A DNA stretch of 64,000 bases, taken from assembly GCA_051294905.1 (NCBI GenBank), contig CM119372.1, positions 15,130,001 to 15,194,000 on the forward strand. Direction: 5' to 3'. Position 1 is the stretch's first letter. Each line of letters opens with the position of its first letter. Position numbers and translations under genes: made by a program. The notes under the pieces were generated by a model. The model was not told the origin of the DNA, searched no databases, and worked only from the letters and a program-made list of their open reading frames with translations. Source of the stretch: Botryllus schlosseri (taxonomy: Eukaryota). Shown here piece after piece: positions 9,101 through 46,121 of the stretch.

Positions 9101-11457
9101 AAGAAAATGAAAATAGAGCAAGGGATAGAAAAGGAGAAGGCGAAAGAGCAAAAGAAACGGGAGAGAAAAGAGAGAAGGAAGCAAGAAAAAGAGATGAAGA
9201 AGGAGCTCGAAGAAAAGAGAGAGGCCGAGAAAGAACGGCGCGAAAGGAAGGAGAGAATCGAAAAGGCCGCGGCACGGCGGCGTAAAGAGAGAGAGAAGCG
9301 AGAGAAGAAAGAATCGGAAGTTGACGAAGAATCGGAATCCAAGCACGTCGAGATTCATCAATCTTTGTGCAGGATGGAACATAAGCTGATGCGGCAAGAG
9401 AAACGACGAAGCAAAGTGCCGGTGGAGTGGCTCGGCCTTACGGATGGTGAGACTTTTGGACTATAGACCCTGCGTCGATTTTTAGTTATTTTTCCTACTT
9501 ACGATTTTTGTTCCTGCGCAGGCTCCAGATCAAAAAAGAAACTCAGCGGTCATAATAAGAAAGAGTGTTCCAGGCCGCAAGACCCAAACTCATCCCGCAG
9601 GGCTTGGGAATGGAGCAAGGATCCCGGTATGTTTTGATTTGCACCGTCTTTATCGCCAATGTCTAGATCGGCCGGCTCAAAATTTTTCGAGTCACTGCCC
9701 CCTTATTGAGCTCGACATATCTTTATCGCACAAAATCCAGTACTGAAAGCAGTTCATATCTATTTGCAGCAATTAGTCGAGTAGTTTTGTTCGTACACTA
9801 TTTCTACTTCGACAGTTTTGATTTAGAAATGCGAATATTGGCATACTTAATTTTGTGTAGCAAAAAGTAGGGAATCAGACCACCTTCATGAGAGGTTGAA
9901 TCGGCAGATGAGCCCAGGTCCAGGCAGGCTGTATAGCTCAAATGTTTCCCTATACAGAGCACATTTGGATAGGTGAAAACAGACTGAAGCCTATCACTGC
10001 ACCATCGATGTCCTTGAATTGGCTCTTAAAAACTTATTAACGCGTACACTTTCTGTGATACAGTAGTAATTCATAATTAGATTTTTATTACAATTTCGTT
10101 CTAAACCTATGATTTGGTGTTACAGTGCTGCCTTCAAATACCGAAGTTTCTTACACTCCAGTGGAACCTTTGAAGGTGTTTGACCATGGAGAATTTGAAG
10201 AACGATTGATTGCTACCATCAAGACTGGGATTAAACTTGTCATTGCGAAGCAAATGTGCTATAGTAAGTATGAGCCCAGTTTATGAGGATGTTGTTATAA
10301 AATAAGTGTTGGTACTTGCTCATATCTACTTCAAAATAGCACATTATCCTCGAGTACTTCCGTGTTCTATATTGGTCGTCGGTTATTTTTGCATGGTTTT
10401 CGTCATCTGGAATAGTTTATAGTCTGGTGATTCCTCCTGCTCTATACTTACTGTAACTGTGCATCCTTTTGTTACAGGCCAAGGACGGAAATATAAGAAG
10501 TCTTACGCATCGGTAAGATTAAATTCTTTTATGTATTTTGTGATTTCCGACTTGCAGAAACAATTTGCATTCGATTTCAAAACATCAGACAAATCGTAAC
10601 TTATTAAGTGTCGGTAATGATTTTGGACGAAATTATATATAAATTCTCATAACTAGGCTAATATGAATTCCGGGATTGTTGTGATGTATGGATGTAATAT
10701 TGCTATAATTTTGCCTTTCAGAAGCACAGCTCAAGGGACTATTATCACACACGTACGTATATTGTTGTTTTCGTGAGCTATTCATTTTGAAAAACGGAAT
10801 CCGTAGTAATCTCCGTCCCCGGAATTGGTTGACGCAAATTTAACTATTTCAACTTCCCTTACCACAGGTCTGAACATTGACATACCTAGCAATGTTCTGA
10901 AGTGCTCGGAAAGAATGCAGCTTCATGACTTCCTGAAAACTTGCGACAAATGCAAGATGGGCGCACTCAAAGGATGGAGCATGTTATGGGACTATAATGC
11001 GTGGTTTTATCCCAATATACCTGGCAGTACATGTAAGATGATATCGGCGCAGTGGCTTCGAAATTGCCCTGATATTTTTTAATTCTATTTGTTTTATTAC
11101 GAAACGCTGCACACTTTTTTAACCAAATATTTGGAATTTGGAATCAACTAATCGCATGAACAACATATGTTTGAATACCATTACGAATTGTGTAAATTCC
11201 TCGGATTTTGACTGTCCTACGTAACGCTATGTCGTAATCGAAAAATAATAGAATAGAATGTTCTGCAAACGAAATATCGTATTTTAGTGTTGTAATAATT
11301 GTTCCCTTTGTAAAATCTATGTATAATCTCAGGCAAAATCGTTCCTGATATAGACATCAAATCTGCGATAAAGAAAACCAAGTTATCTATTGACGAATAT
11401 GCTGTCGTTACCGCTGCCAAAGTTATGAAAGGGTTGCACGAAGCGACAGTAACATGA
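198..11457 (+). CDS. Multi-exon gene (5' end outside window): long low-complexity Lys/Glu/Ser-rich protein with a charged coiled-coil exon and a C-terminal globular domain of unknown family
   Basis: Many short exons with cag|...|gt(a/g)ag boundaries. The 3' exons chain with consistent phases: 8780-9446 (KE-rich), 9522-9626, 10126-10263, 10478-10512, 10722-10752, 10868-11032, 11333-11457 (…VMKGLHEATVT, TGA 11455-11457). AATAAA near 12035. Upstream exon structure only partly resolved. Confidence 0.8.
3780..5870 (+). repeat. Internal tandem duplications of exon-intron units in the 5' gene
   Basis: Two ~470-bp units (exons 'gatcaacatcaagttgaaactgtg' ~3816 and 'gatcaaagtcatgttgaaattgtg' ~4281, both ending catgtaagcttttgtaa). 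Three ~320-bp two-exon units (acceptors tttcag at ~4989/5311/5630; DL(V/I)L(E/G)E-type exons at ~5167/5489/5808). Confidence 0.7.
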
Positions 11458-12856
11458 CTGTAAGTTTTACGCTGAAATTTCAATACTGAGATAACAATCG
11501 TATACAGAAGTGATCAAGGCAGTCGCTGTTGCTACTCAAGTAGAAGCAAAAGTATTGCAATAAAATTATGCTCAATTATAAATAAGTAGAGGTAGCTATT
11601 CTCAGCACAGCAAAACTACTTAATGTGGCTGAGAAGAAAATGAAAGATTTGACTAGAACCCAATTAAGTAGGATTTAAAGGTAGATTTGGTTGAGGCGTT
11701 GCATACATTAAGAAGTAGTGTGAGTAGGCGTGTGTCGAAATTGAAAGTTGCATCTTAGCGCCTAACTTAATCTGAATTAATTAATTGGAGACACCCAAGG
11801 CAATTTGGCTCATTTCCTACCTCACTATCGTAATCGTGTGGGGTCTTTTGAAATGATAACAATATTTGTAAAACTTACAAACGCTCAAATCAGTTCTATT
11901 CTACCGGCAAATCATTATCGATAACGTTGCTTCAATATCGTACTCTTGTTTTTAGAATCGAAATTCATCTTCTAAGTGCAGCGGACGGCGATACCAATTT
12001 CACCTTATTTCTTTGTATTGCTATTTTGCCAAGTAATAAAATGTATGAAAAAACTTGTTCAGCCCTGACGTAGCCAGAGTAATGAGTGTTACCAGGTGTT
12101 TTTTTGCTTACTATAGGAATTTTTTGCTGCTTGGACATCGCTGGGGTGTAGTGTTCCAGTTGATATATTTTGATGGCATAGGAAGTTATATCTTTTCCGT
12201 GGCATTAACGTTTATCAGATTAGCCGGTACCATTGCTGTTGTAAGTACCTTTACCGCATCCAGAGACTTGATGATTATCGGGATATGGGACTTTTCTAAC
12301 GATTGACGCATCTGTACGGAATAATCTTCTTGATTGGTACACGGATGTCCACGTTTATTCACTATAATCCTTGAAAAGAGCTCTTTAAACCGAAGAGGGG
12401 GGGCCTGGGCGACCGCCCACCACTGCGGGGAAGTAAACATGAGATTCTCTACTACCAAGCTGTTGTTTCTTAAACTCCCATGAATCTTGATATTTCATAC
12501 ATTTACACTGAATTCGGAGTTCACATCGCACTGATTGCAGTCGCCAACTGGAACATACGAGCCATTATTTATTAGGCTACTTAACATGCGTTACCTTTCT
12601 TCGGATTTTGACCCGTACTATACCCAAAACGTCGGCGTGTAGGGTAGGGTTACCATACGTCCTCTTTTAAGAGGATTTGTCCTCTTTTTTGAAAGTGTCC
12701 TTGGAGGACGCCCAAATACCTCTTATGAGATTTTGTCCCCTTTTTTGAGAATTTTGGCTAAGCAAAATATTAATGTCATTTCAAAACACCACAAAACTGC
12801 GATACTATGAAAAGATAGGAAGGTGTCGAAACGACCTGGAGTAGTTTCCGAAATCA

Positions 12857-14108
12857 CAGAGGTGGTTAGTAGAAGAAGGTAGTTAAGGAAGCTACTCAAG
12901 TAGAAGTAGAAGAAGCGACGAAAAAATCTACTCAATTACGAGTAGAAGTACTTCTTAGGTAAGCAACCCAAAACTACTTGAAGTAGAAGTAGAATTGACT
13001 GCAAATATACTCAAGTAAGTAAGTAGTTGTGAAAACGATCGTAATTCGTTCGCATGGACTGTCAAAAGCTGCAAATGGAGCTACGCGGAAGCTGTAGAGA
13101 GCTTGATTCATATTGATGCATCCCAGGAGGTGTAAATTTTTGACAGAAATAAGCAGTCGTCCACATCATGGGATGTAAATGATAGTACTATTATGGAAAT
13201 GCGATACTAATCCTTTGTTTACTCGAATATCCCGTTTTAGAGAATATCGTGGCATGGCGCCCTTCCCCATATAATAAGGTCCCTAGTTCAGTCGAAGAGC
13301 AATACGGAGAAGTTGTGTCGGATACGGCTTTAACACTTTGCGCGATTAGTATACGCAAATTGAAAATATGGTAGATCGTAAAAGTGCCATATAGCGTAGG
13401 CCTAGCTTTATTTTCGGAAAATATAATCATTCTCCAGACAAAAGAACTGAAACTATCATTAGAACTCAGCGTATAATACTCGTAATTGAAAGAAAAATAC
13501 AAATACTACTTCTAAAAAGCGGAAAATATATTTCATGTCTTTTGTCCAGACAGTTTCAACGGTGGTCTGCTAAAACAGGTCTAACGTTATAAAAAGTCAA
13601 AGTCTACTTTTCCAGATTAGGACACGTCATGGGCTGCTAGTTATAATGTGTAATTGCTTGATTGCGAAACGGTAGTTTCAAACGTTATGGGGGCCATGCT
13701 AACTGTGATGAAATATTTTATATAGGCTACAACACGGTGTGAACGGAACCACGCAATTTAAATTATGTTCAGCGATACTTTCGTTAAAACATATATTTGT
13801 CACTCCATATCTAGTATCTACTGTGCGCGAAGCGCAACAAAAATTCCGAATATTTCATTAATTTTACGAAAAATGAACGTTGGTACTACGTTAAAGCAGC
13901 CCCGAAATTCCTTGGGCCATCTTTCTTATGTGGGGATTAAACTACTTCTACTTGAAAAACTGAAAATAGCGAAAAGTAAGTAAGTAGTTCACAAAATATT
14001 ACGAAGTAGAAATAGCGAAAAAAATCTACTTGAATAAGTACCAGAAGTAGATTAAGACTACCTGAGTACTTCGAAAAAGTAGAAGTACTTCGTTACTGAC
14101 CACCTCTG
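12857..14108. mobile_element. hAT-like non-autonomous element with GAAGTA-rich subterminal repeats
   Basis: Ends cagaggtggttagta … ttactgaccacctctg; related fragments at ~8660-8715, ~14270-14325 and ~19410-19460. No clear TSD. Confidence 0.55.
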
Positions 14109-15648
14109 GAAGTTAGACATCCACCCTGGCCTAGGCGAATAGAGGAGAGGCATGCTCACTGAATGAAAAGTAAAGCAGAGACCAGTTGCGGTCTTTTACT
14201 CTGGCATCCACCTCGGCATAGTGCCCGAAGTCACAGTTTTTCGATGTTAATCCTTATTCGGTCTTTCCAAAAACTACTCGAGTACTTTGAAAAAGTACAA
14301 GTAGTGCGTTACTGACCACATCTGTGTACAATACAACCTGAAGGTAAAACTCCTGTTTCTCTGATACATCAAATATTAAATTGGTTTACAAATTTGGAAT
14401 GTATTTTTCTGCGTGGTGTCGACAATATAAAGTTCATGGTTAATTTTGACTTGGCGTAGGTAAGATGATGATTGTTAAGCCTATATGTGAAAGCTGCCGG
14501 AAGGCAGGAAACGCCGACACCGACACTCAAAACTCACTAAGGAACAGCTAAGAATATTTTTTAAGCAATATTCTTTAATTTCGACAGTATAATTCAGCGA
14601 TATCTTGCAGTATAATAGCGGGTAGCAAACAACAGTCACATTTCTTTCAAAGAACCTGACCAATTAATATCAAGTTAGTGGTTTACCTTTAACACGACTT
14701 CGCCTTATACAGAAACTTTGATAGAGTCGCATAACGAGTTGATGAAAAAGGCAGTATTAAATAAAGTTACAAATGTTTACTTTTGAGTTGCACATATTTG
14801 CTGTAATTACATTTGGATTAATTTTGAAGCATTTAAGATTCCCCGGTCCGCAACATTTGTTTTGGGGTTTTGCCGTTCCGCTAGGTAAAAAGGGTTGAGA
14901 ACCACAGATGATGAATTGCGTTTTCCAAGGTGAGGATTGGCTCCCCTTTTGCCCGTTATTTATGAATAATATATATACACCTTGCGGGATTCTGGTTGTA
15001 AAAATGTTCAAAATTAGCCATTCATGAGCATCAGTAGAAAAATACCAATAATACTGAGAATTGTCACCTATTCCTACTTATCCTGACGACAGGTGAGGCA
15101 CCGCTTCACATGCCTCCCAACCGCACGTTCACGAGTTAAACAATGATGACGTACAATGTATGACGTAATGACTACACTCATTCCCTGGCTTCTTCATGAC
15201 TGAGCAATGAACAGTGAACACGTTTTGTACACATTCTATTTATTTGGTAAAATCGCAATACAAAAAAGAAGATGAATAGGAAGCGTTGTCCGGTGCCCTT
15301 TCAAGATGAATTTCGATTCTAAGAAGAACAGAACCATATTAAAGCAGAAGCACTGATAATGTTTTACGATATGAAGGCAGAATTATATATGCCGGGAATT
15401 ATATATTTGAGTGTTTGTTGGATTTATATTTTTATCATTTCACAAGACCCTCGCATGATTATGATATCGGGATATCGAGGACAGGAGTCAAAACACTTTG
15501 TGGTGACTTCAACTATTTGCCAAGATGCATATTTCAATTTCGAAAGTAGACGGCTCCGATTTACACCTAAATGTATCCAGCTGCTTTGATCACTTCTGAC
15601 TGAGTAGATTGTTATGTCAGTATTGAAAATTCAGCGTAAAACTTACAG

Positions 15649-18600
15649 TCATGTTACTGTCGCTTCGTGCAACCCTTTCATAACTTTGGCAGCGGTAACG
15701 ACAGCATATTCGTCAATAGATAACTTGGTTTTCTTTATCGCAGATTTGATGTCTATATCAGGGACAACTTTGCCTGAGAACATACATGGAGCATTTTACA
15801 AAGGGCACAATTATAACAATAGCAAAATATGCTATTCCGCTGGCAGATGATTTAATTCCATTGTTTTTCGATTACGACATAGCAAAACGACATAACGCTA
15901 CGAAGGACAGTCAAAATCCTTTGAGGAATTTACATAATTCGTAACAGTATTCATGTATCTGTTGGTCATACGCGTAGTTAATTCGACATTCAAAATATAC
16001 TCACTACTCAGGCAGCGTTCCACAATAATGCTAATAGAATTAAGGGCAATTTTGATGCCACTGCACCGATGTCATCTTACATGTACTGCCAGGTATACTG
16101 GGATAAAACCACGCGTTATAGTCCCATAACATGCTCCATCCTTTGAGAGCGCCCATCTTGCATTTGTCGCAAGTTTTCAGGAAGTCATAAAGCTTCATTC
16201 TTTCCGAGCACTTCAGAACATTGCTAGGTATGTCAATGTTCAGACCTGTGGTAAGGGAAGTTGAAATAGTTAAATTTGCGTCAACCAATTTCAGAGATGG
16301 AGATTGTTACAGATTCTGCTTTTCAAAATGAATAGCTCACGAAAACAACAATATACGTACGTGTGTGATAATAGTCCCTTGAGCTGTGCTTCTGAAAGGC
16401 AAAATTATAACAATATTATATCCATACATTACAATAATGGAATTCATATTAGTTAAAAGGATTTCTTCCCACAGATTTATAAGGATTTAAATATAATCTG
16501 GTCCAAAATCGTTCAAGATCATTACCGACACTTGATAAGCTATGACTTGTGGCAGACGTTTCAAAATCGAGTGCAAATTGTTTCTGCAAGTCGAGAATCG
16601 AAAAATACATAGCAGAATGTGATCTTACCGATGCGTAAGACTTCTTATATTTTCGTCCTTGACCTGCAACAAAGAGATGCACAGTTACAGTAAGTATAGA
16701 GTAGAAGAATCACCAGACTATACACTATTTCAGATCACGAAAACCATGCAAATCAACCCGGCGAGCAATATAGAACACGGAAATTCTCGAGGATAATGAG
16801 TTGTTTTCAAATAAATATGTGCAAGTACCAACACTTATTTTCTTAACAACGTCCTCATAAACTCGGCTTATACTTACTATAGCACATTTGCTTCGCGATG
16901 ACAAGTTTAATCCCAGTCTTGATGGTAGCAATCAATCGTTCTTCAAAGTCTCCATGCTCAAACACTTTCAACGGTTCCACTGCTGTGCAAGAGACTCCGG
17001 TATTCGAAGGCGGTACTGCAACATCGAATCACAGGTTTAGAACAAAATCGCAATATATACACTGAGGTCAAAATTGCCATACCACAGAAAGTGTTCAGGG
17101 GGCTGTAAAGGTAATGCTCTTTAAATGAGTTTCCAAGAGCCAATTCAAGGACCAAGATCTAGTTCAGTGGTTCACAAAGCGGGTAATTTAACTCCTGGGA
17201 TTTATCAAAGGGTTGAAAAAAGGGACAAAAATGTCAAGTGCTTTCATTTTGAGATGATTGTGAAAATGGATTCCTGGTCGATGGACAACTAGACATCGAC
17301 GCTATAGCGATAGGCTTTAATTCATTTTCATCACGTCAAATTTGGTATTTATAGCGATAAATTTGAACTACCCTATGTAGCCTACCTGGACCGATCTGCC
17401 GATCATGCTCTCATAAAGATGATTGGCTGGCCTACTTTTCTCTACGCAAAATTAAACGTGCAAATAGTTGTATTTCTGCATCAAAATATTGATGTAGAAT
17501 TGAGCATGCAAACAAAACTACTTGACAATGAGTTGCAAGTAGATAAAAAACTACTTTTGAGCAGTACTCCGGAAAAAGTAGATCTACTTTGATACCGATG
17601 AGCGCTGGCATTTAAGAGTTTGATGAAGACATGTTGAGCTCACTATCAATGCTGTAGGAAGTTTCAAGTACGTTGACCAGTTGGTTAATCAATATATTAG
17701 AAAGAAATACAAAGTGTGGTTGCGGTACATCTCAACGGCCCGCAAGCAATTTTTGTGCAGTTTGAGTTTATTCTTGGAGGAGCAGTAATACCGCCTATCT
17801 AGTCTTTGGCGTTACAGCGCAAACCACAACTTACGGAGATCCTTGCTCCATTCCCAAGCCCGACGGGTGGAGTTTGGGTCTTGCGGCCTGAAACACTCTT
17901 TCATGTTCTGACCCTCGCGTTTCTTCTTCGATCTAGAGTCTGCACACGAACAAAAATCGTAAGTCGGCAAAATTATTTAAAATCAACGCAGCGTCGAGTG
18001 CTCTTTCTCATCCACAACACGACCATAAACAAATAGTGTTCCACGTGAACATCTATAATCTGTTTACGGTTAGGGAGAGACTGGGACAACTAGATAATTC
18101 TAGTAGTTTAATTAGATTAATCGGAGTGAAACGCTGGTAATGTAATTTTATTCTAATTTATACTCTAATTTTAATTCCAATCTAATTTCTGGTTTTCCTG
18201 AAATTGCTAGATGAGAACTGTGTCGTGCGAAATGAGGTAGACATGCTGTACAGACATTTGCTATTTTAGTACTTGACATGAGCTGAACTTAATTCGATTT
18301 CCAAGTTTTCGCTAATTCAGTAATTCTAATTCTAATCTAATTTGGAAAAAAAACTATGTAGCTATAATTCTAATTCTAATCTAGTTTCGAAAAGCTGAAA
18401 ATTTTGTAGTTCTCCGACTCTGGTCAGGGTAGCGTAGGAGCATTCATTATGCCTACTCCAACTTTAATCCTACGATATCCAATCCACAAGCCCATAAGTA
18501 TATATACATGCACGACTGCACATGCATACATTGAGTTTCATAGAGAACGCAGTTGACGGTCATACGAAGCACCATAAATTTTAAGATGCTCACGGTGAGA

Positions 18601-19772
18601 CATGATTGGCTATCGGTTTTCGTGGATTAAAAAATACGCTAGACCCATAACACGTCCCAAAATCTCACCATCCGTAAGGCCAAGCCACTCCACCGGCACT
18701 TTGCTTCGTCTTTTCTGTTGCCGCATCAGCTTCTTTTCCATCCTGCGCAAAGATTGCTGAATCTCGACGTGCTTGGATTCCGTTTCCTCGTCCACTTTCG
18801 ATTCATTTTTCTCTCGCTTCTCTCTCTCTTTCCGATGCCGTGTCGCGGCCTTTTCGATTCTCTCCTTCCTTTCGCGTCGTTCTTTCTCGGCCTCTCTCTT
18901 TTCTTCGAGCTCCTTCTTCATCTCTTTTTCTCGCTTCCTTCTTTCTTTCCTCTCTTTTCTCTCCCGTTTCTTTTGCTCTTTCGCCTTCTCCTTTTCTATC
19001 TCTTGTTCCACTCTCCTTTTCTTTTTATCTTCCCTGTCCTGGGCGCGGAGAAATTCTTCCACTTTCCGCCGCCCAGCCTTCTTTTCCTCACGGTTCATTT
19101 TCTTTAGACGTCTTTGCTTTTTCTTCTCCAATTTTTCCTGATATTTCAAAAACTCCCTTTCCTCTTTCGTCTCAAGCGATTCGGCTATTTTGGTGTGTTT
19201 GATTTTCTTGAGAGCTTTCTTCAGCGCCTTTTTCAAGTCCTTTCCGGACATGGACTCGTATTTTCTCTCATTTTCCTTCACATATTTATGGCTCGCCGTA
19301 TTTTCTAATGCGTCGCCTTTCAACCACTGAGCTATATAAACGACAAATCACTTTGAGACTTCTGCAAAATCGAAAACACAGTTAATCGAAGACTAAAGCA
19401 AATGATCTCAGCAATGAAGTACTTCAACTTTTTCGGAGTACCTAAGTAGGTTTCATTAGTATCACCAAATCCTCGGATCATATATTGATGTTGATATTAT
19501 TCTGCCGTTCTCTCAAATACCCTCACTACTATTTCATGATACTCACATAAACCGTCTTGCAATTGGTTTCCATTCTTTCAAATACTGGACCATACCTTCC
19601 TCTCTAAATTGAAAAAGAATATTGTTTGACAGAGCGAGCAACAAATGACAGCAACATCTCGCATACCATCTTAGATTTAGCATCGATAATATCCTGTATT
19701 GTTATTGGTTTAGCCGGTTCAGGCTCACTCCAAGATAATTGGTCGTCGGTGTCGGCGTCTGTAGTAGTATCC
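15649..19772 (-). pseudogene. Inverted partial duplicate of the 3' exons of the 198-11457 gene, probably disabled
   Basis: ORFs 18610-19323, 16040-16288 and 15614-15850 mirror 8762-9466, 10825-11082 and 11217-11483, with splice sites retained. A 17-bp insertion (19324-19340) frameshifts and stops the KE-rich exon. Homology ends near 19816, with no upstream exons found. Confidence 0.75.
18076..18422. mobile_element. Degenerate hAT-like MITE with (AATTCT) repeats, present only in the inverted copy's intron
   Basis: gagactgggacaacta … tagttctccgactctg imperfect TIRs; flanks gttaggga/gtcagggt resemble a degenerate 8-bp TSD. Confidence 0.45.
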
Positions 19773-19889
19773 TGTAAGAGAATAAACAGATAAAGTCATG
19801 AACATCCATACTGTTAACCTTACTCCCGCGGTCGGCCTCCAGGCCAAATTTTAATGCATCAACCAAAAAGTTCATAAAACGCGAACAAC

Positions 19890-19956
19890 AGGACTAGAAC
19901 CGACGCCCAATACATCGCCGTGATCAGGAAATAGCAGCCTAACCAACTGAGCTACT
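19890..19956 (-). mobile_element. tRNA-derived (SINE-like) Pol III promoter segment near the breakpoint of the inverted duplication
   Basis: Minus strand reads gtagctcagttggttagg… (A box) …ggttctagtcctg (B box); no convincing cloverleaf. Confidence 0.4.
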
Positions 19957-20209
19957 CGAAAGGCTCAAGAGAGAGAGGTGACGATGATATTGAAACAAGT
20001 CTACACGATTTCTCAAAAGTGAAAGAGAAATTTGTTTTTCGTTTTCACGTGACGTGATACATAATCCTTTCCATGGTGAATGACCACGTGGTTGTCTTAC
20101 ATATCAATTTCAGCATTCAAACAAGACATTGCTGACCTTGATACCTTTACGCAGTCGAGCGCACCGCGACTGGGAAGTTTTCGTTATACGCATTACTCAC
20201 GGCCGCCAC

Positions 20210-20290
20210 TGATTACGTCATCGCGATAGAGGCAACGCGCCTTGTAATTTGTGTTTATTTGGCTTTGCCTGGTCCAGTTATATAAGTCCA
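20210..20290 (+). promoter_or_regulatory. Putative Pol II promoter of the repeat-protein gene
   Basis: TATATAAG at 20279-20286, ~60 bp before ATG 20342. Forkhead-like TGTTTATTT ~20252 and ATF/CEBP-like TTACGTCA ~20213. Confidence 0.5.
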
Positions 20291-20341
20291 AATCCATGTT
20301 ACTGATCTTATAGATACTATTCAACGTACATAACTAACAAA

Positions 20342-22770
20342 ATGTTCAATTTGCAACTGCACAAGGCCATCGTAAGTAAATATATTGCCTCGTTTGACAC
20401 TTCTCATAGGCGCGCGATTTCTCTTGTTGCTTCATTTCATATCAATTTGAAACGTGTTCTACGCATCGAATGTCCGATACAGGTTCGTCAGTATATGGGC
20501 ATATGATCAACATCTATTCATTGAAGTCTAAAGTAACTTCATATCCAGCACCATAACTGCCGCACCCCAAACCCCCCAATTGGGGGGGGCCCGAGCTCGA
20601 AGGGGGCCCCAAATTATTTCGTGAATTAGCATAAATTATAGAGTATTTTTTGAAAATTTATGCGATTTTTTCCAAAATTTTTCGCGCTGCGCGCGATTTA
20701 AAGTTGCCAAATATCTTGATTATTTGGTACTCTTCCCCCAAGAAAAAACACGCAAGATTTATAGAAATGGACATATCGGCGTTGGCCATTAATACACCAC
20801 TACGCACCAAGATATATAACGATTTAGGACTTATTACATGCGACTCCAAGAAGTGTGCCAGAACGATCGGCAGCGCGAAAATCTTAGCCGAAACAGACTG
20901 CCCTTACGCAGACCGAAAACTTCGTTATAGGTACAAAATAATAGGTTTAATTGTCCATAGGCGCCTAGATGACTGGCGCCATATGTTGCTTCCTGTCTTG
21001 GCAATCTGAACCTCAGAAGACAAATACCATCCAGCAGGAAAAAAATATATACCTGTGAAGAAATACCAATTTGAAATCGTGTGCGTCTTTTAGTTTAGTA
21101 CGTTTGAGCGATTCTATATTTTTGATATAGCAGACAGGAGGTCACGAAATAAAATCATGTAACGAAGTCATACCAACGGGTCCGGCCGCCCGAAGATGTT
21201 TAATTGTTATTTACGGGCCCTACAGTTTCCGGTAAATCTGATAACGTGAGCAGAGAGGACAAGATATTGATAGCAATATATTAGCAATTCCCGATCTTAT
21301 TGACCGATTGTATCATGAATTATCGAAAATTTTCGCGCTTCGAGCTGGCTCACTAAACAGTGCAGCTAAGTTCGTGGCAAAAGCGAACACTGTGATGAGG
21401 GGGTCTGTTTATCACCCTATGAGACCCCCAAACCCAAGTTTTTGTGGGGGGGGGGGCGAGGCTGACGAAGTGCTGTTTCGTTCCTGCCAACGGGTATACG
21501 CCCGAAGATGTCTAATTATTATTGGGCGGTCCTACGTTTTAAAACATACCTCGCTCAGCTCTACCGGTAAATCTGATTACGTGAGCAGGGAGAGGATCAA
21601 AATTGATAGCAATATATATGTAATTCCCGATCATATTGCCTGATTCAATCATGATTTTCTGAAATTTTTCGCGCTTCGCGCGTCTAAGCGGGAAAAGCTG
21701 ATTCACTAAACGTACACCCAATGCAGATGTAAAATAGTGTTAAAAAGCGGACAGCCAAAGGAGGGTCTGGGGGGCGAAGCCCCCCAGAAGTTAGGTTTAT
21801 CACCCTATGGGGGGCCCACGGCCAACGTTTTGGGGGGGCCTGACGAAGTGCTGTTACGGGCCTGCATATAACATATAAAACGGATGATTCAACTGTCTGT
21901 ATGATGTTGTTATTACAGGCGCGAGCTCACGCCAATGCCAACAACAACTTCCAATTCGCCATTGGCCAAATAGGACTCGGTCTCAATGTGGGCGGTGATC
22001 ATTCTGGCGGTCACGGTGTCGATGTCGATGTAGCAGACAACACTCTCACCATCGCTGACGCACACGTCGATAGCGATCTGGTAGTCGATGTGACCACCGA
22101 CGGAGGCAAAGGACAATGTGGTGACCTCTTCGCTGGTATGAGCATGAGCGGAATCAACCTCAATCTCGGAAACAACGCCGGTGCTAAAGCAATCGCAGCC
22201 GGCGGACCTCACTACGGAAGCGGCGATGCTATTGCTCACGCCAATGCCAACAACAACTTCCAATTCGGCATGGGCCCAATGAACCTCGGTCTTAATGTGG
22301 GCGGTGATCATTCTGGCAGTCACGGTGTCGATGTAGCAGACAACACTCTCGCCATCGCTGACGCACACGTCAATATAGAGCTGGCAATCGATGTGACCAC
22401 CGACGGAGGCAAAGGCCAATATGGTGACGTCTTCGCTGGTATGAACATGAGCGGAATCAACCTAAATCTCGGAAACAACGACGGTGCTAAAGCAATCGCA
22501 GCCGGCGGACCTCACTACGGATGCGGTGATGCTATTATTCACGCCAACGCCAACAACAACTTCCGATTCGCCATGGGACCAATGGGACTCGGTCTGAATG
22601 TGGACGGTGATCATTCTGGCGGTCACGGCGTCAATGTCGATGTAGCAGACAACACTCTTGCCATCGCAAATGCAATGGCTGACGCCAATGCTAACAACCA
22701 AATCCAATTCGCCATCGGCCCAATAGGACTCGGTCTCAATCTGGTGATCACGGCCTCGATGTCGTTGTAG
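20342..22770 (+). CDS. Two-exon Gly/Asn/Ala/Asp-rich repeat protein (~293 aa); exon 1 20342-20371, exon 2 21919-22770
   Basis: aaaATG TTC…GCC ATC|gtaagt (phase 0) joins ttacag|GCG CGA GCT CAC (phase 0), giving MFNLQLHKAI-ARAHANANNNFQF. Repeats of 309 and 303 bp (103/101 aa) plus a 47-aa unit; C-ending codon bias; GC above flanks. Confidence 0.75.
20546..21864. mobile_element. hAT (Tip100-like) MITE in intron 1 of the repeat gene
   Basis: Same family as 61178-62534 and ~50075-51000 (gccgcacccc…, aagtgtgccagaacgatc, gctgacgaagtgctg); right end gttacgggcctg. Confidence 0.75.
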
Positions 22771-22778
22771 AAGACAAT

Positions 22779-23772
22779 AGGCCTAAACAAGGAGGAATGG
22801 GCGACTTAATATGATACTGCAAACTACCTACTAAAAGACGGACCTACGGGGCTCGTTCACTTTCGGACCAAACTGACTACAGCCTTTCGGAGAAAATGTG
22901 TTTTTGGTCCGAAAGTGTACGAGCCCCGTCCTGGTCCTGGTCCGGTTTCGTCAAATTCAGATTTGATTATTAGGCTTCTAGTAGTTAGGATATGCGACGA
23001 TCTTGCTCGTCGAACTATTCGATATACACCGACATACGTCTGTTTCATACCTGAAAGGAATTGAACTACTGTGGTGCAATTACTTGAAAGTTGGGATGTA
23101 GATGAAGCTATACGAGCAAGTCTAGTATAGCTAGCATCGGATTATCTATCGAACATTCGTATTATTTGAATATGTGAGAGGCGGTAATAAACTTCAATAT
23201 TGCTTTCAGGTCTACATTGATCGCAGTGGAATTTATAACTCCAACACTTTTCGTGTGCACCTTATCAATAGTTAACAGCGCAGGAATGATTGCTAAATGT
23301 AGATCTGCTTCCCATCTGTCTCTGTCTCTAAAATTGACCAATCATTATTTACGCCGGGAGGAGCAGTTTCTATACAATCTTAAATTTGTCAATTAATATA
23401 TAGGCTACCGCTAATTGTCTGTGTAATATACAATTTGATTTTCTGTCGTCTCTTTATTATGATTGCCGGTACAGCTGATTTGCCTAGCGTTCCGTTTTAT
23501 TATTGCATTTTTACGCCACACTTTGCCAATTCAGCTTTCGTTTGGATCTCTTTCCATAATCTGATCATGCTTCATATTGTGCCGAATGGGCACACGAAAA
23601 GTCTTCGAGTTACTAAATTCTATTGCAACGAATCCATTCTGAAAGCAATATTAGTATTTTTGTCGACTATCTGTGCTTCTACTGCAAATCGTGTTAATAA
23701 TGACGGATTTTGCCCAACGTTAGGACATTTTCTAAAGCGACCTTATGATTCAAATTTCATAACGATCGATTG
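22779..23772. mobile_element. Unclassified ~1-kb insertion in the repeat array, containing an 84-bp mini-MITE
   Basis: Interrupts the unit between gacaa and actcttgcc. Inside, 22846-22929 has TIRs acggggctcgttcactttcggaccaaa / tttggtccgaaagtgtacgagccccgt flanked by cct/cct. Confidence 0.55.
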
Positions 23773-24886
23773 ACTCTTGCCATCGCAAATGCAATGGCTG
23801 ACGCCAATGCTAACAGCCAAATCCAAATCGCCATCGGCCCAATAGGACTCGGTCTCGATCTGGTGGTCACGGCCTCGATGTCGATGTCTCAGACAACACT
23901 CTTGCCATCGCAAATGCAATGGCTGACGCCAATGCTAACAACCAAATCCAATTCGCCATCGGCCCAATAGGACTCGGTCTCGATCTGGTGGTCACGGCCT
24001 CGATGTCGATGTCGCAGACAACACTCTTGCCATCGCAAAGGCAATTGCCGACGCCAATGCTAACAACCAAATCAAATTCACCATCGGCCCAATGGGACTC
24101 GGTCTCAATCTGGTGGTAACAATCTCGATGTCGATGTTGATGTGGATGTAGCAGACAACACTTTTGCCATCGAAAAGGCAATTGCCGACGCCAATGCTAA
24201 CAACCAAATCAAATTCACCATCGGCCCAATAGGACTCGGTCTCAATTTGGTAGTCACGGCATCGATGTCGATGTCGCAGACAACACTCTTGCCATCGCAA
24301 ATGCAATTGCCGACGCCAATGCTAACAACCAAATCAAATTGACCATCGGCACAATAGGACTCGGTCTCAATCTGGTGGTAACAATCTCGATGTCGATGTT
24401 GATGTGGATGTAGCAGACAACACTTTTGCCATCGAAAAGGCAATTGCCAACGCCAATGCTAACAACCAAATCAAATTCACCATCGGCCCAATAGGACTCG
24501 GTCTCAATCTGGTGGTCACGGCATCGATGTCGATGTCGCAGACAACACTCTTGCCATCGCAAATGCAATTGCCGACGCCAATGCTAACAACCAAATCAAA
24601 TTCACCATCGGCCCAATAGGACTCGGTCTCAATCTGGTGGTCACGGCATCGATGTCGATGTCGCAGACAAACACTCTTGCCATCGCAAATGCAATTGCCG
24701 ACGCCAATGCTAACAACCAAATCAAATTGACCATCGGCACAATAGGACTCAGTCTCAATCTGGTGGTCACGGCATCGATGTCGATGTAGCAGACAACACT
24801 CTTGCCATCGCAAAGGCAATTGCCGACGCCAATGCTAACAACCAAATCCAATTCGCCATCGGCCCAATAGGACTCGGTCTCAATCT
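23773..24886 (+). repeat. Tandem array block 1: about 9 units of 125/137 bp derived from the coding repeat
   Basis: Unit starts at 23773, 23898, 24023, 24160, 24285, 24422, 24547, 24673 and 24798; includes a duplicated 262-bp (137+125) dimer. Confidence 0.95.
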
Positions 24887-27800
24887 CCCAGCAAACACAA
24901 AACTTATTAAAGATATTTTTTAAACATCTTCCATGAGTTCAAAAGATGTCCTTCAACTATGTGCAAAATATATACATTTGTCGACAGAAATGGATATATA
25001 TAAGATGTCCTGTAGGACATCCTCAAAGATATCCTGATGGACATCCTCAAAGATATTCTGATAAACATCCTCAAAGATATCCTGATGAACATCCTCAAAG
25101 ATATCCTGATAAACATCCTCAACGATATCCTATAATATATTTTTTGCACAACTCGACCCTGTGTGACCCTGAACCCTGGTTGGCTAAACCTGCTATATGC
25201 TGCACTTCACATATGAACGAATACGAATCGTCAGTTTTACAAATCATGTATGGCTTTTTATTCTATATTATACCAGTTCAAAATACAAAAAATGCACTGG
25301 ACAAGACCTTGACGGAAAATTGCAATAAAAATGGATGAAGAATGAAGGTAAAATAACAATCCGTGACACAACAATACGTTAGCAAGAATTGGGCCTTGAT
25401 ACAGAACTGTGCAATCACTTCAGCAAATATTTCTGCATTGGCATTAGTCCATGTTATCGGTATCTGAATCATCAGCCTCCTCGATAACAGTCTTGCTCCT
25501 GTTGTCTCCTTTATCGTCATCCTATAACATATATGAATTGATTACTCTGAGCCAGCTTCAAACATTTCTTTGGTGAACGGGATACTATAGCTAGCTGTAC
25601 ACAATGTACATATAGTATGTTGTGTACCTATTAAAGTTGCGATGTCAAAACATTAAAACCAACGATACAATCAATTCATGTTGCTCTTAAATTATGTACA
25701 ATGACTTCAAGATCGGACATTTTTCGCCAACTCCAAAGATTAATGTACTGAGCTAAATCCTAAATCCATTACGACTCGTTGCGCTGATGCCGTGTACTTC
25801 CACATGAAGAATGCACTTTAGTCCGAGTTTAATGCACACCCTTTCAAGGGCATGTGACTTATGACACTGCCGGAATAATCGGTAACTTCAGCGTCAACTT
25901 GCTGTTATTATATAATCGAAATTATTTTTGTTGCCGTTGGTTGTCATTGCCGGGGGACAAAAGTCACCGTTTCCACTCCCATTTTTGCATTGTTTATTGC
26001 GACACCATACGTGTCGCTACATCTCATCAAAGTCGGATGAAAGCTATATGTAGACTACCCCTGAGCTAAGTTATAAGTTACAAAATTTTCAATTTATTAA
26101 AAAAATTAAATTAATTTTTGAATTTTGCCGTCCATCCCTATGAAATTGTAAAAAAAACAATGCATACCAAATTTGGCGCAATCCCAACCAGTAGAGGAGA
26201 AATTTCAAAACCATAATTTTGTATCTCAACAATTTCACTTCTACACGTTGGAATTGAGCCAAATTTGCCATGCCTCCAGTTCGCCACCGAAATAGCCGGA
26301 CCAGAATAGTCAGACCCAATGTTCCCTCTACTTTTTGACGAGTCTGGACACACTCACCAACTCACTGCGCGGTCCCCTGGACAGCAGTGCGTAACGACTA
26401 AAAAATGACATCGCTTCCGATTTTTTTTGTGTGCAGCTTGAATTTTCTGTTCGCAGAGACCGTGTCAGCACTGCGCAATTGCGCATGTGTGCAGCTTAGA
26501 GGGAACATGGGTCAGGCCATTGCAATCTGAGCCCCCCAAGCGGTACAAATGCGACCAGTGGAGGATAAACTTGCTTCCCCTGTTGAAATGTGAATTGAAA
26601 GGAGTTTGAAATGAGTGATTGATTATTTGCCCAAAAGTTTCGGTGACATTGGTTCCACCGCTAAATCTGAGCAAGTGCAACGAGAGGATCAAAAATTTAT
26701 GCAAGACCGACAATATTGACAAAATTAAATATTTCCTATAAATTTTTTTTTAATTATATTACGTCAAAGTTGCATTACGCGATTACAAAATAACTGAAAA
26801 TATCATGAAGTTTGGGAACCACTGGTATAGTGTTCTGAAGATGAATGGTAGCAGAGCTTGAGGTAGCAACGATTCACTTACTGTCAAATAATATGATAAA
26901 GAGCACAGCTGTTACACAGACGTCAACTTCATAAACAAAATTACCTTGCAAGCTCCAATAACAGTTAGAAATCCACCCACTTTAACTGTAATTGTTTGAT
27001 TCTCGACCGTAGGATGAGCCACTTTACATGCTCCTTTAAAGATAATATAAGTAGATCAGGGGCGGCATTACAAAACAATGCAGCAAATCGCAATCTGCGC
27101 CAGCGGTAACAATCTCTCTCGAATGCGATTACCGCAGTGTCAAAATTGGTATTTCAAAACATTCCCGACCCAACACAGAGTTTCACAATCAATGCACTTG
27201 TTTGTGATTTCGCCATGTCGGATCTCAGTAAAAGATGACTTCAAACGAGGGCTTATAAGGCTGTGTGGTCAGCAACAATTTGCAATTATGCTTTCACAAA
27301 AACGGAAATCAAAATACCATACCTCGGTAAAAATGCTCTCCGTTATTGAGGAATTTGTAATTACGATTGTGATATTAGTAACAACTTACGTTTAATAGTC
27401 TTGTAAAGAGTCAAATTTGTTCAAAGCATATACCTGAAGTACAAAATACAATTGATGATAGTGGTTTGTGCCAGAATGAAAAATAACTTCCATCAGTTCA
27501 GTTTATTATTAAATTTTAGGTACTCAATTTAGCCCAGCACTAACAAAGTTAGATAGACATCAATTAACTTGAAGGAAAGGTATTTGGGGTACTGCATAGC
27601 TTGTCTTGATCGCTGCCTTCCGAACAGTTGCGGCTTGGTGAAATCGACATATACCGTAATTTTCCATGTATAATGCGCAAAATTTTACCGATTTTTTGCC
27701 CTAAAATAGTGGGGTGCGTATTATACATGGGTACAGCAAGCCTTGGGTTACTCGGATTAATATCAAGAAGTCTGGCCACAATAAATCACACGAAGCACTA

Positions 27801-30800
27801 AGAAAATTTCAATGAAGTTTATTATATAATTTAGCTTAATTTACAAAATAACTTTGGACCACAATTCCAGCTTGGGCCTTCTCGAAGTGGAGGGTTTAGG
27901 GTGCGGCCCTGTGTTTAGTGTTCCTTTCCGTCTTTGCATTTCTGCTTTCGGCGGTCTTTTTTGACATGCCCGTTTATCGTTCATGGAGGATGTCTCATAG
28001 TAAAAACGAGCTCTTATTGACTTGATTTACGAAGAAACGTAGCCTATCACGAAACAATTTGAAGCACAGACCGTGTAATGCGTAATGTGACAATGGCAAC
28101 AAAGAAGGTTTGAACTAAATGGAAAGAGTGACTTATTGTGATTTAAATTGTTATGACATACTTTGCTACATTGGCTTTATGTTGAACATGGATCACGCAT
28201 GCGAGCTTGCGAGAGACGTAGGCTGCGTAACTGCGGTATATTTCCGTTCCGGCCCAGTTTATAAGCTTACGGTTAAATTTTCAAAAGTAGGTTTTGTGTT
28301 TTGAATTTCAAGAAATGGACACGCGGGCCGCTCAGAATGGTTTGCGGGCCGCACTTTGGCCAAGTCTGAGTTAGATAGTCCGGCAAAGTTTGCTCTAATC
28401 AAGAAAATCATACCAGTTTAGACTTCTTGCAATCACAGTTAATCGAGTTCTTTTCCAGTTGTTCCAGATGAGATTTGACAGGGGTCTTCAATAAGATCTT
28501 CCAGCAAGATTGGGGTTGTGGTACTGTGTTTTTTGAATCGGTGATGATGTGACCTTTACTGAGATTCATCATCTGGTTGATCTGCTTGGAGCAGAGGTCC
28601 ATCATCTGGTTCATCTCTAACTTCAATTCTTTGATATCTTTACGCATCAAAGAAATTGAGTGGTCACTGTATGCAGATGTTGGAGTTGATGGTGTGCACG
28701 GAGCAGCTAAAAAATTATTTGAATATAAGAAAGCTGGATTAATCATATGTGATAATCTTACCAGCACTTTGTAACAGGCCTCGTTGTTGACAAGTCAGGA
28801 TTTTTAAGTTCAACATTGCTTACAAATGAAGGAGCGTCTAGAAAACAGAGCGACGCTATAACTCAAATTCGAGAATGAATCAAAGTGTTACGAGCTTACT
28901 GCATGGGTTAGTTCCCTGCAACTGGCCGCTACATTCAATGTTGGAATCATGATGTTCTTGAACACTCTCCGCATGATGGCAAACTTGCATTGCAAGCATC
29001 ATTGAACACAGCACCCTTGCTTGTCACACTTTTATTGCCAGAATCAGGAGATGGCCGCATTCTTAGAATTGGTATTAGCATGCCTTGTGTCTGAATACTT
29101 GGATTACTTTTCTTCTTTGAAGGAAACACATCATCTACAAAGTATGAAAATTTATATATGAATATTCTGTGTACAACATATTAGGCAGAATAACAGAGTA
29201 TATACCGATACCTTGATCATCAGTTGAAACAGAATTATCCTAAAATTTTTTGGGCGGCTGATGTTTTCGTTTAGACTGTTGTCATTCTTCATATTCAGAC
29301 AATGAAGAGGAGGGCAAGCTACTATTGTCCACAACTTCCTTCATGTCATTATAAGCCTTCTCCCATACATCTAAAACAGATGGATAATAATATAGTTGGC
29401 AAGGTCCCAGATTTGTACACACTACTGGATTTTTAATAAGCACAACTATAGAATTACTCAAATTTGAAAACTCGCAACTAACGACAGGCGCTCTTTAGTT
29501 GTTTGGAAACTATTACGGCCTAGTATTTTTCCAAATGTGCATCTAGAACTAGAACTACGGTACTGAAAAAACCGTTCGTTAGTTGTCCGTCAACTAACTA
29601 AATAAGCAGTCTGTACAAGTCTGCAATGATATTTGGTAGGCAAACCTTCGCAAATTATGAGTTTATACTTACTGGATGAGCATTTGATCCGGATTTTCCA
29701 CAAATACCAATTGCCCTTGTCATGTTTTCGTGGCTTCTTGTTTTTCGCCTCATTAGTGGCCTTCTTTGCTTTCGTCTGTGCTTCCACTGTCATATTATAT
29801 ATCTGGGAACTATCAAGTCTTGGCTGAGCCCACAAGCGCCACACACACTACACAATTTAATTATAAACAAAAGTACAAAAACATTCAATCACAATGAATG
29901 ATTTGAGCGACAATCATCTGATGATATTATATAATCCAGTACTGTCATAATAGCTTATGATATTCGCAAAAGTGCAAACCAAGTCCTATATACTTTGCGA
30001 CATTATACCATACACCATAATACCTATGTTTCACATTAAGCATATATAAATTACCATGTACAGTTCAGTTTTCAGTAATCCTCTGAAGGAATATGGTTAG
30101 TTGAGCCTAAAAATACCACGATTAATTCCAGAACGCAACTAAACCAAACATTCAACTGCAGCTGTAAGCCGCCATTACGAGAGCGCTTTGTCTGCCAGAA
30201 ATATATTTCGCGCCGAGACTTGTGTTCGCGTGGGAGAAATGGCCTCTCGTTTACACTCCGGAGCCGGAGCCGGAGTCGTAGCAGGATTTCAGCGATACAG
30301 TACAGCCGGACTGGATGCGGATTCTGAATTTGTTTCGACAGTCGGATTTTAGTAAGATGCTTAATTATAATCCTAAATACTATATCATGATTTTGGCAGA
30401 AGTTTGTTGGACGCAAAACTGGAAATTCCTCAGCCGGATTTTGCGGACTTTCAAATTGCTACCTAGAGCTGGGCTAATATGAAATTGAAGTTTAGCCTAC
30501 AAAATCGCAACAAACAGCGTGGAACTAGGTGAAACACTCGGTAGTATAGATAACTAAGGTAAACCCAAGGTAAACCTTAGTTATCTATACTCGGTAGTGA
30601 CACTATAGGTGACTAAATCGCCCTATAAGGGTAAAAATTCATTATAATCTACTGTACATTTATAAACGCCACTCTACCATAATAGGAAGCAATATTCGAA
30701 TTTGATATTTCTCACAAATAGATTTTCAGCATTCGACAAAATTTAGCCAAGAAAAAGTTGTGCTTCAGCACAAGGTATGCACGATAAAAAGATATATTCA

Positions 30801-31115
30801 AGTTGTGCTTTAGCACAAGGTATGCACAAGATGTGATTTGGACATGACTGGACAGGAAAAAGATATATTTAAGTTGTGCTTCAGCACAAGGTATGCACAA
30901 GATATGATTTGAACATGACTGGACAAGAAAAAGATATATTTAAGTTGTGCTTCAGCACAAGGTATGCACAAGATATGATTTGAACATGACTGGACAAGAA
31001 AAAGATATATTTAAGTTGTACTTCAGCACAAGGTATGCACAAGATATGATTTGAACATGAGCGGACAAGAAAAAGATATCCTGACAGGTTCAAAAGATAT
31101 CTAGTGTTTGCTGGG
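24887..31115. mobile_element. CACTA/EnSpm-like DNA transposon (6.2 kb, non-autonomous or degenerate)
   Basis: TIRs cccagcaaacac (24887-24898) / gtgtttgctggg (31104-31115). Subterminal tandem repeats: 24-bp x5 at ~25005-25130 and ~69-bp x4-5 at ~30755-31080. The array resumes at ~31119. TSD not clean (ct / ca). Confidence 0.75.
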
Positions 31116-31118
31116 CAG

Positions 31119-31542
31119 CTGGTGATGGTCACGGCCTCGATGTCGATGTAGCAGACAACACTCTAGCCATCGCAAAGGCAATTGCCGACGCCAATGCTAA
31201 CAACCAAATCCAATTCGCCATCGGCCCAATAGGACTCGGTCTCAATGTGGTGATGGTCACGGCCTCGATGTCGATGTAGCAGACAACACTCTTGCCATCG
31301 CAAAGGCAATTGCCGACGCCAATGCTAACAACCAAATCCAATTCGCCATCGGCCCAATAGGACTCGGTCTCAATGTGGTGATGGTCACGGCCTCGATGTC
31401 GATGTAGCAGACAACACTCTTGCCATCGCAAAGGCAATTGCCGACGCCAATGCTAACAACCAAATCCAATTCGCCATCGGCCCAATAGGACTCGGTCTCA
31501 ATGTGGTGATGGTCACGGCCTCGATGTCGATGTAGCAGACAA
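31119..31542 (+). repeat. Tandem array block 2: near-identical 128-bp units
   Basis: gcagacaacactc at 31151, 31279 and 31407 (period 128). Confidence 0.95.
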
Positions 31543-31606
31543 CTGCTTAGCGTTAACGCAAGATATAAGCAGATCGCCAGACGTACGTATGCGAATGCTT
31601 TCCGAA

Positions 31607-31654
31607 CAGTGACGTGCGGTGAGGTTCATGGCTGGTGAGGCACGGACCCCCCTC

Positions 31655-31686
<32 letters not shown>

Positions 31687-32585
31687 AACACGCACGCACA
31701 TAAAGTAGCCTACCTGATAAAGAAATCCAAAATGTGAATAACAACAGCAGCGGGTATAGAGAGCATTTTCTCTGCACACTGATAGCCGTTGCAATTCTAC
31801 ATTGTACAATGCATGTAGGACTGGTCGCTATTGCGCTAAACGGGCAAGTTTAGAGATGGATAATAATTACTATCTCTTCAAGTACCGGTATAAATTATTC
31901 GAAGCATAAAGCAACGACGATGCAGCCTATGCAAGTAGCTATCACATACCACAATTTAACGGAATATAAATAACAGCTACATAAGTAAGGGAATGTATTT
32001 GTTCCGCATTACGTATTGGCCGTCGCTACTATATAATTCCTACAAGACAGTCAAGACTGTTGTATTCCGAAATCGATAGCGCGTTTCACTGTGCTGCGAT
32101 TGTCTAATTGTTAACGAATAGTACATGAGGCAAATTCGTTTGTGCCTCACCTGGCCATTGTTTCGCTGCGATGGCATTGTTTGTAATAAAGCCGAATGTC
32201 ACCTTCCTTGGCGATTTTTAGGGGGTTCTGGTGGTCTGACGCTGTTAATATTTGGATTTTCGGAATCAGTGTGACGATAGCATTTGATTGATACCAGTTG
32301 TTATGAATTCCGAGCTATTTTTGATGAATTGCATTGTCGCAGGTGAGGCACGACCCGCCCGTGCCTCACCTGTGCCGCAACTCTCCTTTCGCGCTGTATT
32401 TTTGAATAATACTTATGAAAATTGATGATGTTGTGTGAAAAAATGTTCAAATTTAAATATTTATGAACATCGATGTAAAATATCAGTAATTATGGACTCA
32501 TGGAGGGTTTTCACAATTTTCAATTATTCACCCTGACGACAGGTGAGGCACTGCCTCACCTGCCTCATTGGACCGCACGTCACTG
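31607..32585. mobile_element. hAT MITE (979 bp) with internal (CA)n
   Basis: TIR cagtgacgtgcggt / accgcacgtcactg; perfect 8-bp TSD tttccgaa (31599-31606, 32586-32593). Related end at ~15085-15132. Confidence 0.9.
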
Positions 32586-33465
32586 TTTCCGAACTACCAA
32601 CAAGGTGAAATATTGCACTGTTGACTGCGGTGGGGTGATATTGCCTTAACGGCCTATTTGTACCGGTCACCAAAACCTTCAAATTATTTCCATCGGAGCA
32701 CGGCGCACCACTAGCTACATTTTCAGCACTGTTGGGCGATGAAGGTGGCGCATAGTGTCTGGCAGGAATCTTAGCATCTGTACTGCAACTCTCATCGCTA
32801 TCGCAAAAGTTCTCGTCTTCCGGTCGGACCCGCTTCCTTAGGGAAGTGTGATCCGACACCTCCATTTTAACAACAAGGGAGCAATATATCTGTCCCTTCA
32901 CTTAATGCACTTATCTGGGTGCAGCAAGCTATAAGCAATTCCACGTAACGACTTTCTCCGATATTCGAACGCTTTCGGCGACAGGGTGGAGTGAAAATGA
33001 CTTTTTTTTTCAAATCCAAAAAAGGCCTTCCTCAATCCTGACAAATGACCTAAAACTTCAGGAAAAAGTGACTTCAGGGGATTACCCCCATTTTCCAGCC
33101 GGCAACCCCCCAATTTCTGTGCGTGGGGGGGTAAATTGGCCTATCTCGGCAACCGCTGGTCATAGAGTCATGATATATAGCTCAAAATCTGCGGAAACAT
33201 CATGTTTCTATCTGTCTTAAGAGGAAAGTTTTCTCTATTGTGAACACAAAATGAGTTATAGCCAAAAAACAATATATAAGCACATTTTTGTTGAAATTCA
33301 GCATTTATTTTGACGAATTCTGATCCGTCATCAGTTTTTTTGAAAAGAAAAGTAATACACTGACAATGCCGAATATTGGGCCCATAACACAAATATATTC
33401 ACAACACAGTTTTTTTTTAAATCGGTTCCAAACATCATAACGAAACATTCACATTTAACGACATA

Positions 33466-34473: not shown

Positions 34474-34501
34474 TTCATTAGCATGAAGCAGACATGCTAT
34501 C

Positions 34502-42165: not shown

Positions 42166-42244
42166 TTGTATTATTGATCAAAATAGGCATGGTGCAAAAG
42201 GCCTCAGTTAGCCGAGAAGCACCCCCCCCCCCTATACATACATA

Positions 42245-46076: not shown

Positions 46077-46121
46077 ATGAGATTACTGCTGGATGAGATG
46101 GGGACGAAGGCAGGCTCTAGC

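Follow-up and report, generated by a model that had tools for sequence, protein, structure and literature searches.

The question raised by this locus is whether an open frame of repeated, strand-like units, lying behind a TATA box and a tiny candidate first exon, is part of a working gene, and what its repeats would encode. The preliminary description, made from the letters of the DNA, had answered with a hidden two-exon gene for an unrecognised, beta-rich, amyloid- or solenoid-like repeat protein. We examined the locus within the window (the whole 64,000-nucleotide stretch of DNA that was analysed, to which all positions refer), in four sets of reads and in sequence collections. The open frame is the part left intact at the start of a long repeat array that transposons have broken up, and this copy is probably decaying. 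Our preferred reading, to which we give an even chance, is that beta-rich structural repeat proteins form a lineage-specific family in a styelid ascidian and that this locus holds one of its copies, now in decay.

The candidate gene and its repeat unit

Every part of the proposed gene is present in the sequence: the TATA box, the 10-codon exon 1 with its GTAAGT donor, and the phase-matched acceptor at 21918 (Table 1). Joined, the two exons give a model protein of 293 amino acids, 29.3 kDa and pI 4.6. Exon 2 encodes no Trp, 4 Lys, 2 Arg and clusters of His and Gly, as had been stated, and the 103-, 101- and 47-amino-acid repeats are there as well. The metal binding that had been suggested as a possibility would involve the His-Gly clusters. 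What had been overlooked is a fourth, partial unit of 21 amino acids and a 16-bp deletion. Because this deletion takes the final 9 codons out of the repeat frame, the stop codon of the exon-2 frame is incidental. The other frame beyond 22740 was ruled out as the natural C-terminus, since it enters an insertion at 22778.

Table 1. Features of the candidate gene and of the repeat array, in window coordinates.
Feature	Position	Strand	Description
TATA-like box	20279-20286	+	56 nt 5' of the ATG; from sequence
Candidate exon 1	20342-20371	+	ATG at 20342, 10 codons, then GTAAGT donor at 20372
Dispersed repeat, 1.3 kb	20546-21864	.	Non-autonomous, DNA-transposon-like; fills most of the candidate intron
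Candidate exon 2	21919-22770	+	Open frame, 283 codons and stop; AG at 21917-21918, phase 0; 2 aa, then units of 103, 101, 47 and 21 aa and a 9-aa out-of-frame tail
Two full long units	21925-22536	+	Subunit A (47 aa) and subunit B (56 aa); type that draws most reads
103-aa repeat	21925-22233
101-aa repeat	22234-22536
47-aa repeat	22537-22677
Frameshifted tail	22741-22770	+	Follows a 16-bp deletion in the fourth unit (coding unit, 141 bp; unit comparison)
Interruption, 1 kb	22778-23772	.	Short inverted repeats inside
About 9 frameshifted short units	23773-24886	+	125, 137 and 126 bp
Insertion, 6.2 kb	24887-31115	.	12-bp terminal inverted repeats
3.3 near-identical frameshifted units	31119-31543	+	128 bp each
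Interruption, 5.4 kb	31544-36933	.	Transposon-like ORFs, 306-bp inverted repeats
LINE retrotransposon	36971-42245	+	Inside a repeat unit; 12-13-bp target duplication of repeat sequence
Diverged A-type units	42246-44333	+	101-198 bp, with frameshifts and stops
Inverted-repeat element, 392 bp	42683-43074		Splits the diverged A-type units; 2-bp target duplication
Insertion, 2.7 kb	44334-47034	.	Short inverted ends, 8-bp target duplication
Inverted in-frame block	47091-47652	-	1.8 units of the long type; identity to exon 2, 86%

One way to read these parts is that the locus itself is a working two-exon gene for a cytosolic repeat protein (293 amino acids, 29 kDa, pI 4.6), with the decayed array behind it as debris in its 3' flank. 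The agreement of TATA box, ATG, donor and phase favours this, as does the run of 822 nt of exon 2 that is stop-free in the repeat frame. GTAAGT occurs 34 times in the 64-kb window; an in-phase ATG stands at 6 of these sites, and a TATA box also at 2, including 20372. Calculated post hoc, a stretch of 1547 nt would hold such a combination of TATA box, ATG and donor by chance with a probability of about 2.4%, and a transposon-free intron of 222 nt with one of about 0.3%. The shorter length comes from contigs of two of the runs described below (X1 and X2), which connect 20541 directly to 21867 without the 1.3-kb element. This element, which the preliminary description had overlooked in its candidate intron, is therefore an insertion polymorphism, and in contigs without it the intron would be 222 nt, a further point for a working gene. 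However, the stop of that gene would be one that arises through a frameshift. The 1.3-kb element is a high-copy one, with further copies in the window at 50079-50993 and 61177-62534 and with reads in either direction in each of the four runs.

The stated absence of a signal peptide was borne out by hydropathy: the first 30 amino acids of the model hold no hydrophobic stretch, their best 9-residue mean being 1.07. Across 12001-21918, none of six hydrophobic, ATG-started stretches had a donor. The true first exon may sit elsewhere.

Next, we considered the coding character of the repeat. Over the first two units the frame of the model has no stop and its mirror frame on the opposite strand has 1, against 10 to 13 in each of the other four frames. 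Codon use is skewed (TTC 9/9, CAA 7/7, AAA 4/4), and third positions are C in 131 of the 283 exon-2 codons, which are not independent because they belong to repeats. Among the five intact units, all three indels are multiples of 3. Substitutions among the same units number 21 synonymous and 47 non-synonymous, a ratio of 0.67 that is not significant (p 0.09), and a neutral simulation with the observed mutation spectrum gave p 0.13 for selection and p 0.34 for the lack of stops. The single stop-free frame and the skewed codons uphold the coding origin that had been proposed. Judged from its sequence, then, the repeat unit is shaped as a protein, and current selection is not evident among these copies.

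The alternating hydrophobic and polar pattern that had been pointed out also exceeds chance. The beta hydrophobic moment of the unit is 1.30 versus 0.92 +/- 0.12 in shuffled sequences and was reached by 2 of 2000 shuffles (z 3.3), whereas a helical period is absent (z -1.1). By the Uversky charge-hydropathy boundary, the protein would be compact (0.505 against 0.437). AlphaFold2 gave a pLDDT of 38.2 from the single sequence and 42.0 from a 9-row alignment, with a pTM of 0.14 in both, which argues neither for nor against a solenoid.

The repeat array and its decay

The two-exon model covered the head of a repeat array of about 26 kb and overlooked about 26 further units downstream of its exon. 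The core of the unit matches 32 places in 21900-47700; two of these are halves of one split unit, so the array holds about 31 units. Only five lie in in-frame blocks of long units, three in exon 2 and two in the inverted block at the far end. Most of the other 26 are short, having lost 16 bp of the coding subunit of 141 bp, and 16 of 20 downstream unit spacings are not multiples of 3. Homopolymer errors in the assembly were rejected as the source of the 125-bp units, because the 16-bp loss lies outside any homopolymer and recurs in diverged units. A single open frame through three 125-bp units was ruled out by intervening stops.

Six interruptions break the array. The last three carry target duplications (12-13, 2 and 8 bp) that are made of repeat sequence, and the array was therefore continuous before these insertions took place. 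As for the inserted sequences themselves, tandem repeats of 24 bp (25002-25135) and 71 bp (30755-31079) lie within the ends of the 6.2-kb insertion. In the 5.4-kb interruption, the 306-bp inverted repeats (95% identical, at 32984-36859) flank two minus-strand transposase-like frames at 33466-34500 and 35452-36012, the first of which had no Pfam match. The LINE is near-complete, with an ORF1 of 430 amino acids and an ORF2 of endonuclease, reverse transcriptase and RNase H, of which only the RNase H part is split over two frames. The 2.7-kb insertion we take to be hAT-like. At the far end, the inverted block has an AG ahead of it in another phase, and its 3' end is cut at the inversion joint. 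A homologous exon 1 upstream of this block was sought with blastn and gave no match.

The inverted block raises another reading, in which all of 21925-47652 was inserted or is a fold-back element, with inverted long-unit blocks as its two ends. In that case exon 1 and the acceptor would be part of the host site, and a chance junction would have produced the apparent two-exon gene. Both ends of the array begin within 4 nt of the same unit position in opposite orientation, and the inverted blocks (about 560 bp, 86% identical) would suit such an element, though they resemble coding units. Furthermore, a 696-nt X2 contig matches only 20212-20541 and 21867-21925, its match ending exactly at 21925 where the repeat starts, with 307 nt unplaced. 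This contig may represent a haplotype without the array or one with other sequence in the transposon's place; however, the 307 nt may also sit between the two matched pieces. The outer flanks (21919-21924 versus 47653 onward) share no target duplication, and the codon structure of the units favours an origin in a gene. We consider an inserted or fold-back element highly improbable. Under the preferred reading, a decaying copy of a coding repeat, the locus illustrates how such a repeat can turn into a transposon-ridden minisatellite.

The rest of the window holds several other features. An inverted segmental duplication (8294-12061 and 19817-15215, 70-85% identical) carries a pair of frames rich in Lys, Glu and Arg, one at 8756-9466 (+) and one at 18610-19347 (-). 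No Pfam match was obtained for the minus-strand frame. A TATA box with a tiny ATG exon lies at about 51720-51791, and an ATG-started open exon of 75 codons at 52810-53035 (+) ends at GTAAGT; its product may resemble a small domain of the ubiquitin/PB1 type. A NACHT/NLR frame occupies 59014-60603 (+), with Pfam matches to NACHT (E 2.8e-20) and NOD2_WH. It has 13 relatives at 35-53% identity, and the only named one is an NLRC5-like protein of Styela clava (43%), a point in favour of a styelid ascidian as the source. Ahead of this frame, at about 58768-58915 (+), is a candidate small exon for a short, Asn/Ile/Val-rich, strand-like peptide, with a stop before the donor-like site in every frame. 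One frame of this exon gave no blastp match to the repeat at E 10, and the other two showed none by eye. A role of the repeat in amyloid signalling together with this NLR was rejected, as the two have no motif in common in this window.

Reads over the locus

Reads over 20000-23770 came from four of 24 runs. X1 and X2 are contig sets that we guess to be RNA, X23 is bulk RNA and X21 is single-cell RNA; about 6% of the X23 reads and about 3% of the X21 reads were examined. X1 may include DNA, and summed contig depth is a poor gauge of expression. The runs derive from other individuals, whose flanks differ by 2-6%, and letters foreign to this copy may be allelic.

The proposed splicing of exon 1 to exon 2 went unconfirmed, with the joint 20371^21919 absent among the best 15 of 40 joints in the four runs. 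In X1, the exon-1 bin had a depth of 50 between flanks of 72 and 49, versus 91,228 and 122,513 in two exon-2 bins. X23 had zero reads on exon 1. In X21, 5 to 7 sense reads covered exon 1, a point for a working gene, but they continued unspliced across the donor. Similarly, the ATG and the GT of the donor were present in X2 and X21, whereas an X1 contig over exon 1 lacked both. Exon-2 reads in all four runs mostly carried letters foreign to this copy; position 22224, for example, had a different letter in 154443 of 154716 (X1), 67/67 (X2), 18/18 (X23) and 11/11 (X21).

Thus, with exon 1 at background depth, one haplotype without its ATG and donor GT, and a frameshifted end, the picture of a clean, highly expressed two-exon gene was not borne out. 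The C-ending codons on which high expression had been based are real, but the abundant reads carry other letters than this locus. Neither this exon 1 nor a version at least 90% identical to it is in use among the transcribed members. Because the runs are from other individuals, the read data do not prove the locus silent, and we rate a working gene at this very locus as unlikely, though more probable than the other rival readings.

We then turned to the repeat family as a whole. Over six bins inside exon 2, the X21 reads had a summed depth of 0 with the first mate on the plus strand and 25.9 with the first mate on the minus strand, which in most stranded libraries corresponds to sense RNA for this frame. 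X21 reads on the intron element ran in both directions, and X23 reads lay on both strands throughout. The ratio of mean depth on exon 2 to that on the transposon (six versus nine bins) was 2.5 in X1, 0.07 in X2, 0.73 in X23 and 0.08 in X21. This ratio varies about 37-fold between runs and is therefore not a fixed copy-number ratio; together with the sense-only X21 reads, the change shows that the repeat family is transcribed. In X1, 11 to 18 contigs carried a depth of 70,000-155,000, and the best long-unit bin reached 122,513 versus 2,234 in a short-unit bin. An X2 contig runs on from 22667 into another B subunit. The depth on long units and this contig imply that long units make up the members that are transcribed.

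These data also bear on the reading that the repeat is a transcribed satellite derived from an old gene, one that needs no translation and whose open frame is kept by the recent divergence of its units. The neutral look of the divergence would fit a satellite, as would the 26 of about 31 window units outside in-frame blocks, the X23 reads on both strands and the zero protein records in the searched collections. However, the X21 reads are sense-only, the depth lies on the long in-frame units rather than on the commoner short ones, and the signal shifts about 37-fold against the transposon between runs. We therefore hold a satellite to be quite unlikely.

A probable family of repeat proteins and its comparison with known systems

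The claim that the family is an unrecognised one stood up to profile and sequence searches. With phmmer, 1,835,955,588 protein representatives yielded 0 matches to the protein of the 283-codon frame, and a word-indexed protein search returned no relative in either its near-length class or its class of longer proteins (7999 candidates each). The sole Pfam match, to Trypco2, was below that family's cut-off and covered the C-terminal 29 amino acids. In NCBIfam, one of nine units was matched, weakly; among PDB sequences, the best E value was 0.42. Pattern matches were confirmed in 0 of 72 metagenome, 0 of 3 viral and 0 of 36 prokaryote contigs, a 20-nt motif was found in 0 metagenome contigs, and the best ESM Atlas score was 0.80, with none usable. 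Four peptide motifs had no occurrence in literature full text (a scope without subscription papers and bioRxiv supplements), and five had none in 4 supplementary files of a Botryllus proteomics paper (PMC12491926). By topic, the accessible parts of the literature outside subscription papers held no description of such a protein.

Under the preferred reading, the repeat would be the protein-coding unit of a multigene family that is specific to the lineage of a styelid, probably botryllid, ascidian. Its product would be an acidic, Gly/Ala/Asn/Asp-rich protein of tandem units of about 103 amino acids, each predicted to form about ten short alternating strands linked by Gly/Asn turns, one face carrying small or aliphatic residues and the other Asn, Asp and His. 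The role suggested by this composition is that of a bulk structural polymer, produced in large amounts in a given cell type or stage, whose units may stack strand on strand in a cross-beta or solenoid-like manner. The abundant transcripts would stem from other long-unit copies or alleles, and this copy would be silent or minor. It keeps its first 2.7 units in frame and then, through the 16-bp deletion, would have passed into a non-coding minisatellite that expanded and gathered transposons. That some member of the family is translated we consider likely. Amyloid or solenoid assembly is plausible from the strand pattern, and given a protein, we would put the odds of a cross-beta or solenoid assembly at about even. 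As the model has no signal peptide, an extracellular role would require another first exon or unconventional release. The family is real and undescribed, its kind (orphan beta-rich structural repeats) is a familiar one, and this copy is probably damaged.

We also considered a bolder form, a new leaderless functional amyloid of colonial ascidians. Its long-unit copies would be made in bursts and turned over by expansion and decay, and it might be a building block of the fibres at allorejection sites or from immunocytes. We regard this as very unlikely.

Relatives of this sequence are apparently among the abundant transcripts of some samples, yet it is absent from the searched protein collections, and the annotations of a model chordate may thus miss a major structural protein. 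If the protein forms fibrils, it would be a named candidate for the botryllid amyloid-like material and a new self-assembling repeat.

Several known systems offer a comparison. Subunits of the CsgA/FapC type have imperfect tandem repeats of short alternating strands with Gly/Asn turns, are Asn/Gln-rich and have few basic residues. The ascidian repeat shares with curli CsgA and Pseudomonas FapC the imperfect tandem strand repeats, the Gly/Asn turns, the richness in Asn/Gln and the scarcity of basic residues. Unlike them, it has a unit of 103 amino acids (theirs are about 20-35), belongs to an animal gene, has no sequence match to them and has a model without a signal peptide. By sequence, the protein would be CsgA-like in its working and not a member of the CsgA family.

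Like RHIM and HET-s motifs, the ascidian repeat has short repeated strand-turn-strand motifs, and an F-Q-F-G tetrad in one unit resembles the RHIM core. Unlike those systems, the exon-2 frame is all repeat, with no receptor, kinase or effector domain attached, and the RHIM profile gave no Pfam match up to E 1. According to Kajava et al. 2014 (PMC4262963), tunicates apparently lack RHIMs. A RHIM/HET-s signalling motif was rejected for want of a profile match, of an attached domain and of a motif common with the nearby NLR.

In botryllid ascidians, amyloid-like fibres at rejection sites are reported in PMC2275902, and release of fibrils by immunocytes is attributed to Franchi et al. 2019 in PMC7464772 and PMC10093557. 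The animal group is likely shared and a beta-rich, self-stacking protein would suit such material, but nothing ties this sequence to those fibres.

Silkmoth chorion, barnacle cement and squid suckerin proteins are repetitive, Gly/Ala-rich, strand-forming products of multigene families. As is proposed for the ascidian repeat, these families are switched on in bursts, turn over their repeats quickly and include pseudogenes. Their proteins are secreted and showed no sequence relation to the ascidian repeat, which is Asp/Asn-rich and without Tyr-rich blocks. Like them, the ascidian repeat is an orphan, repetitive, Gly/Ala-rich and strand-forming, and it belongs to a multigene family.
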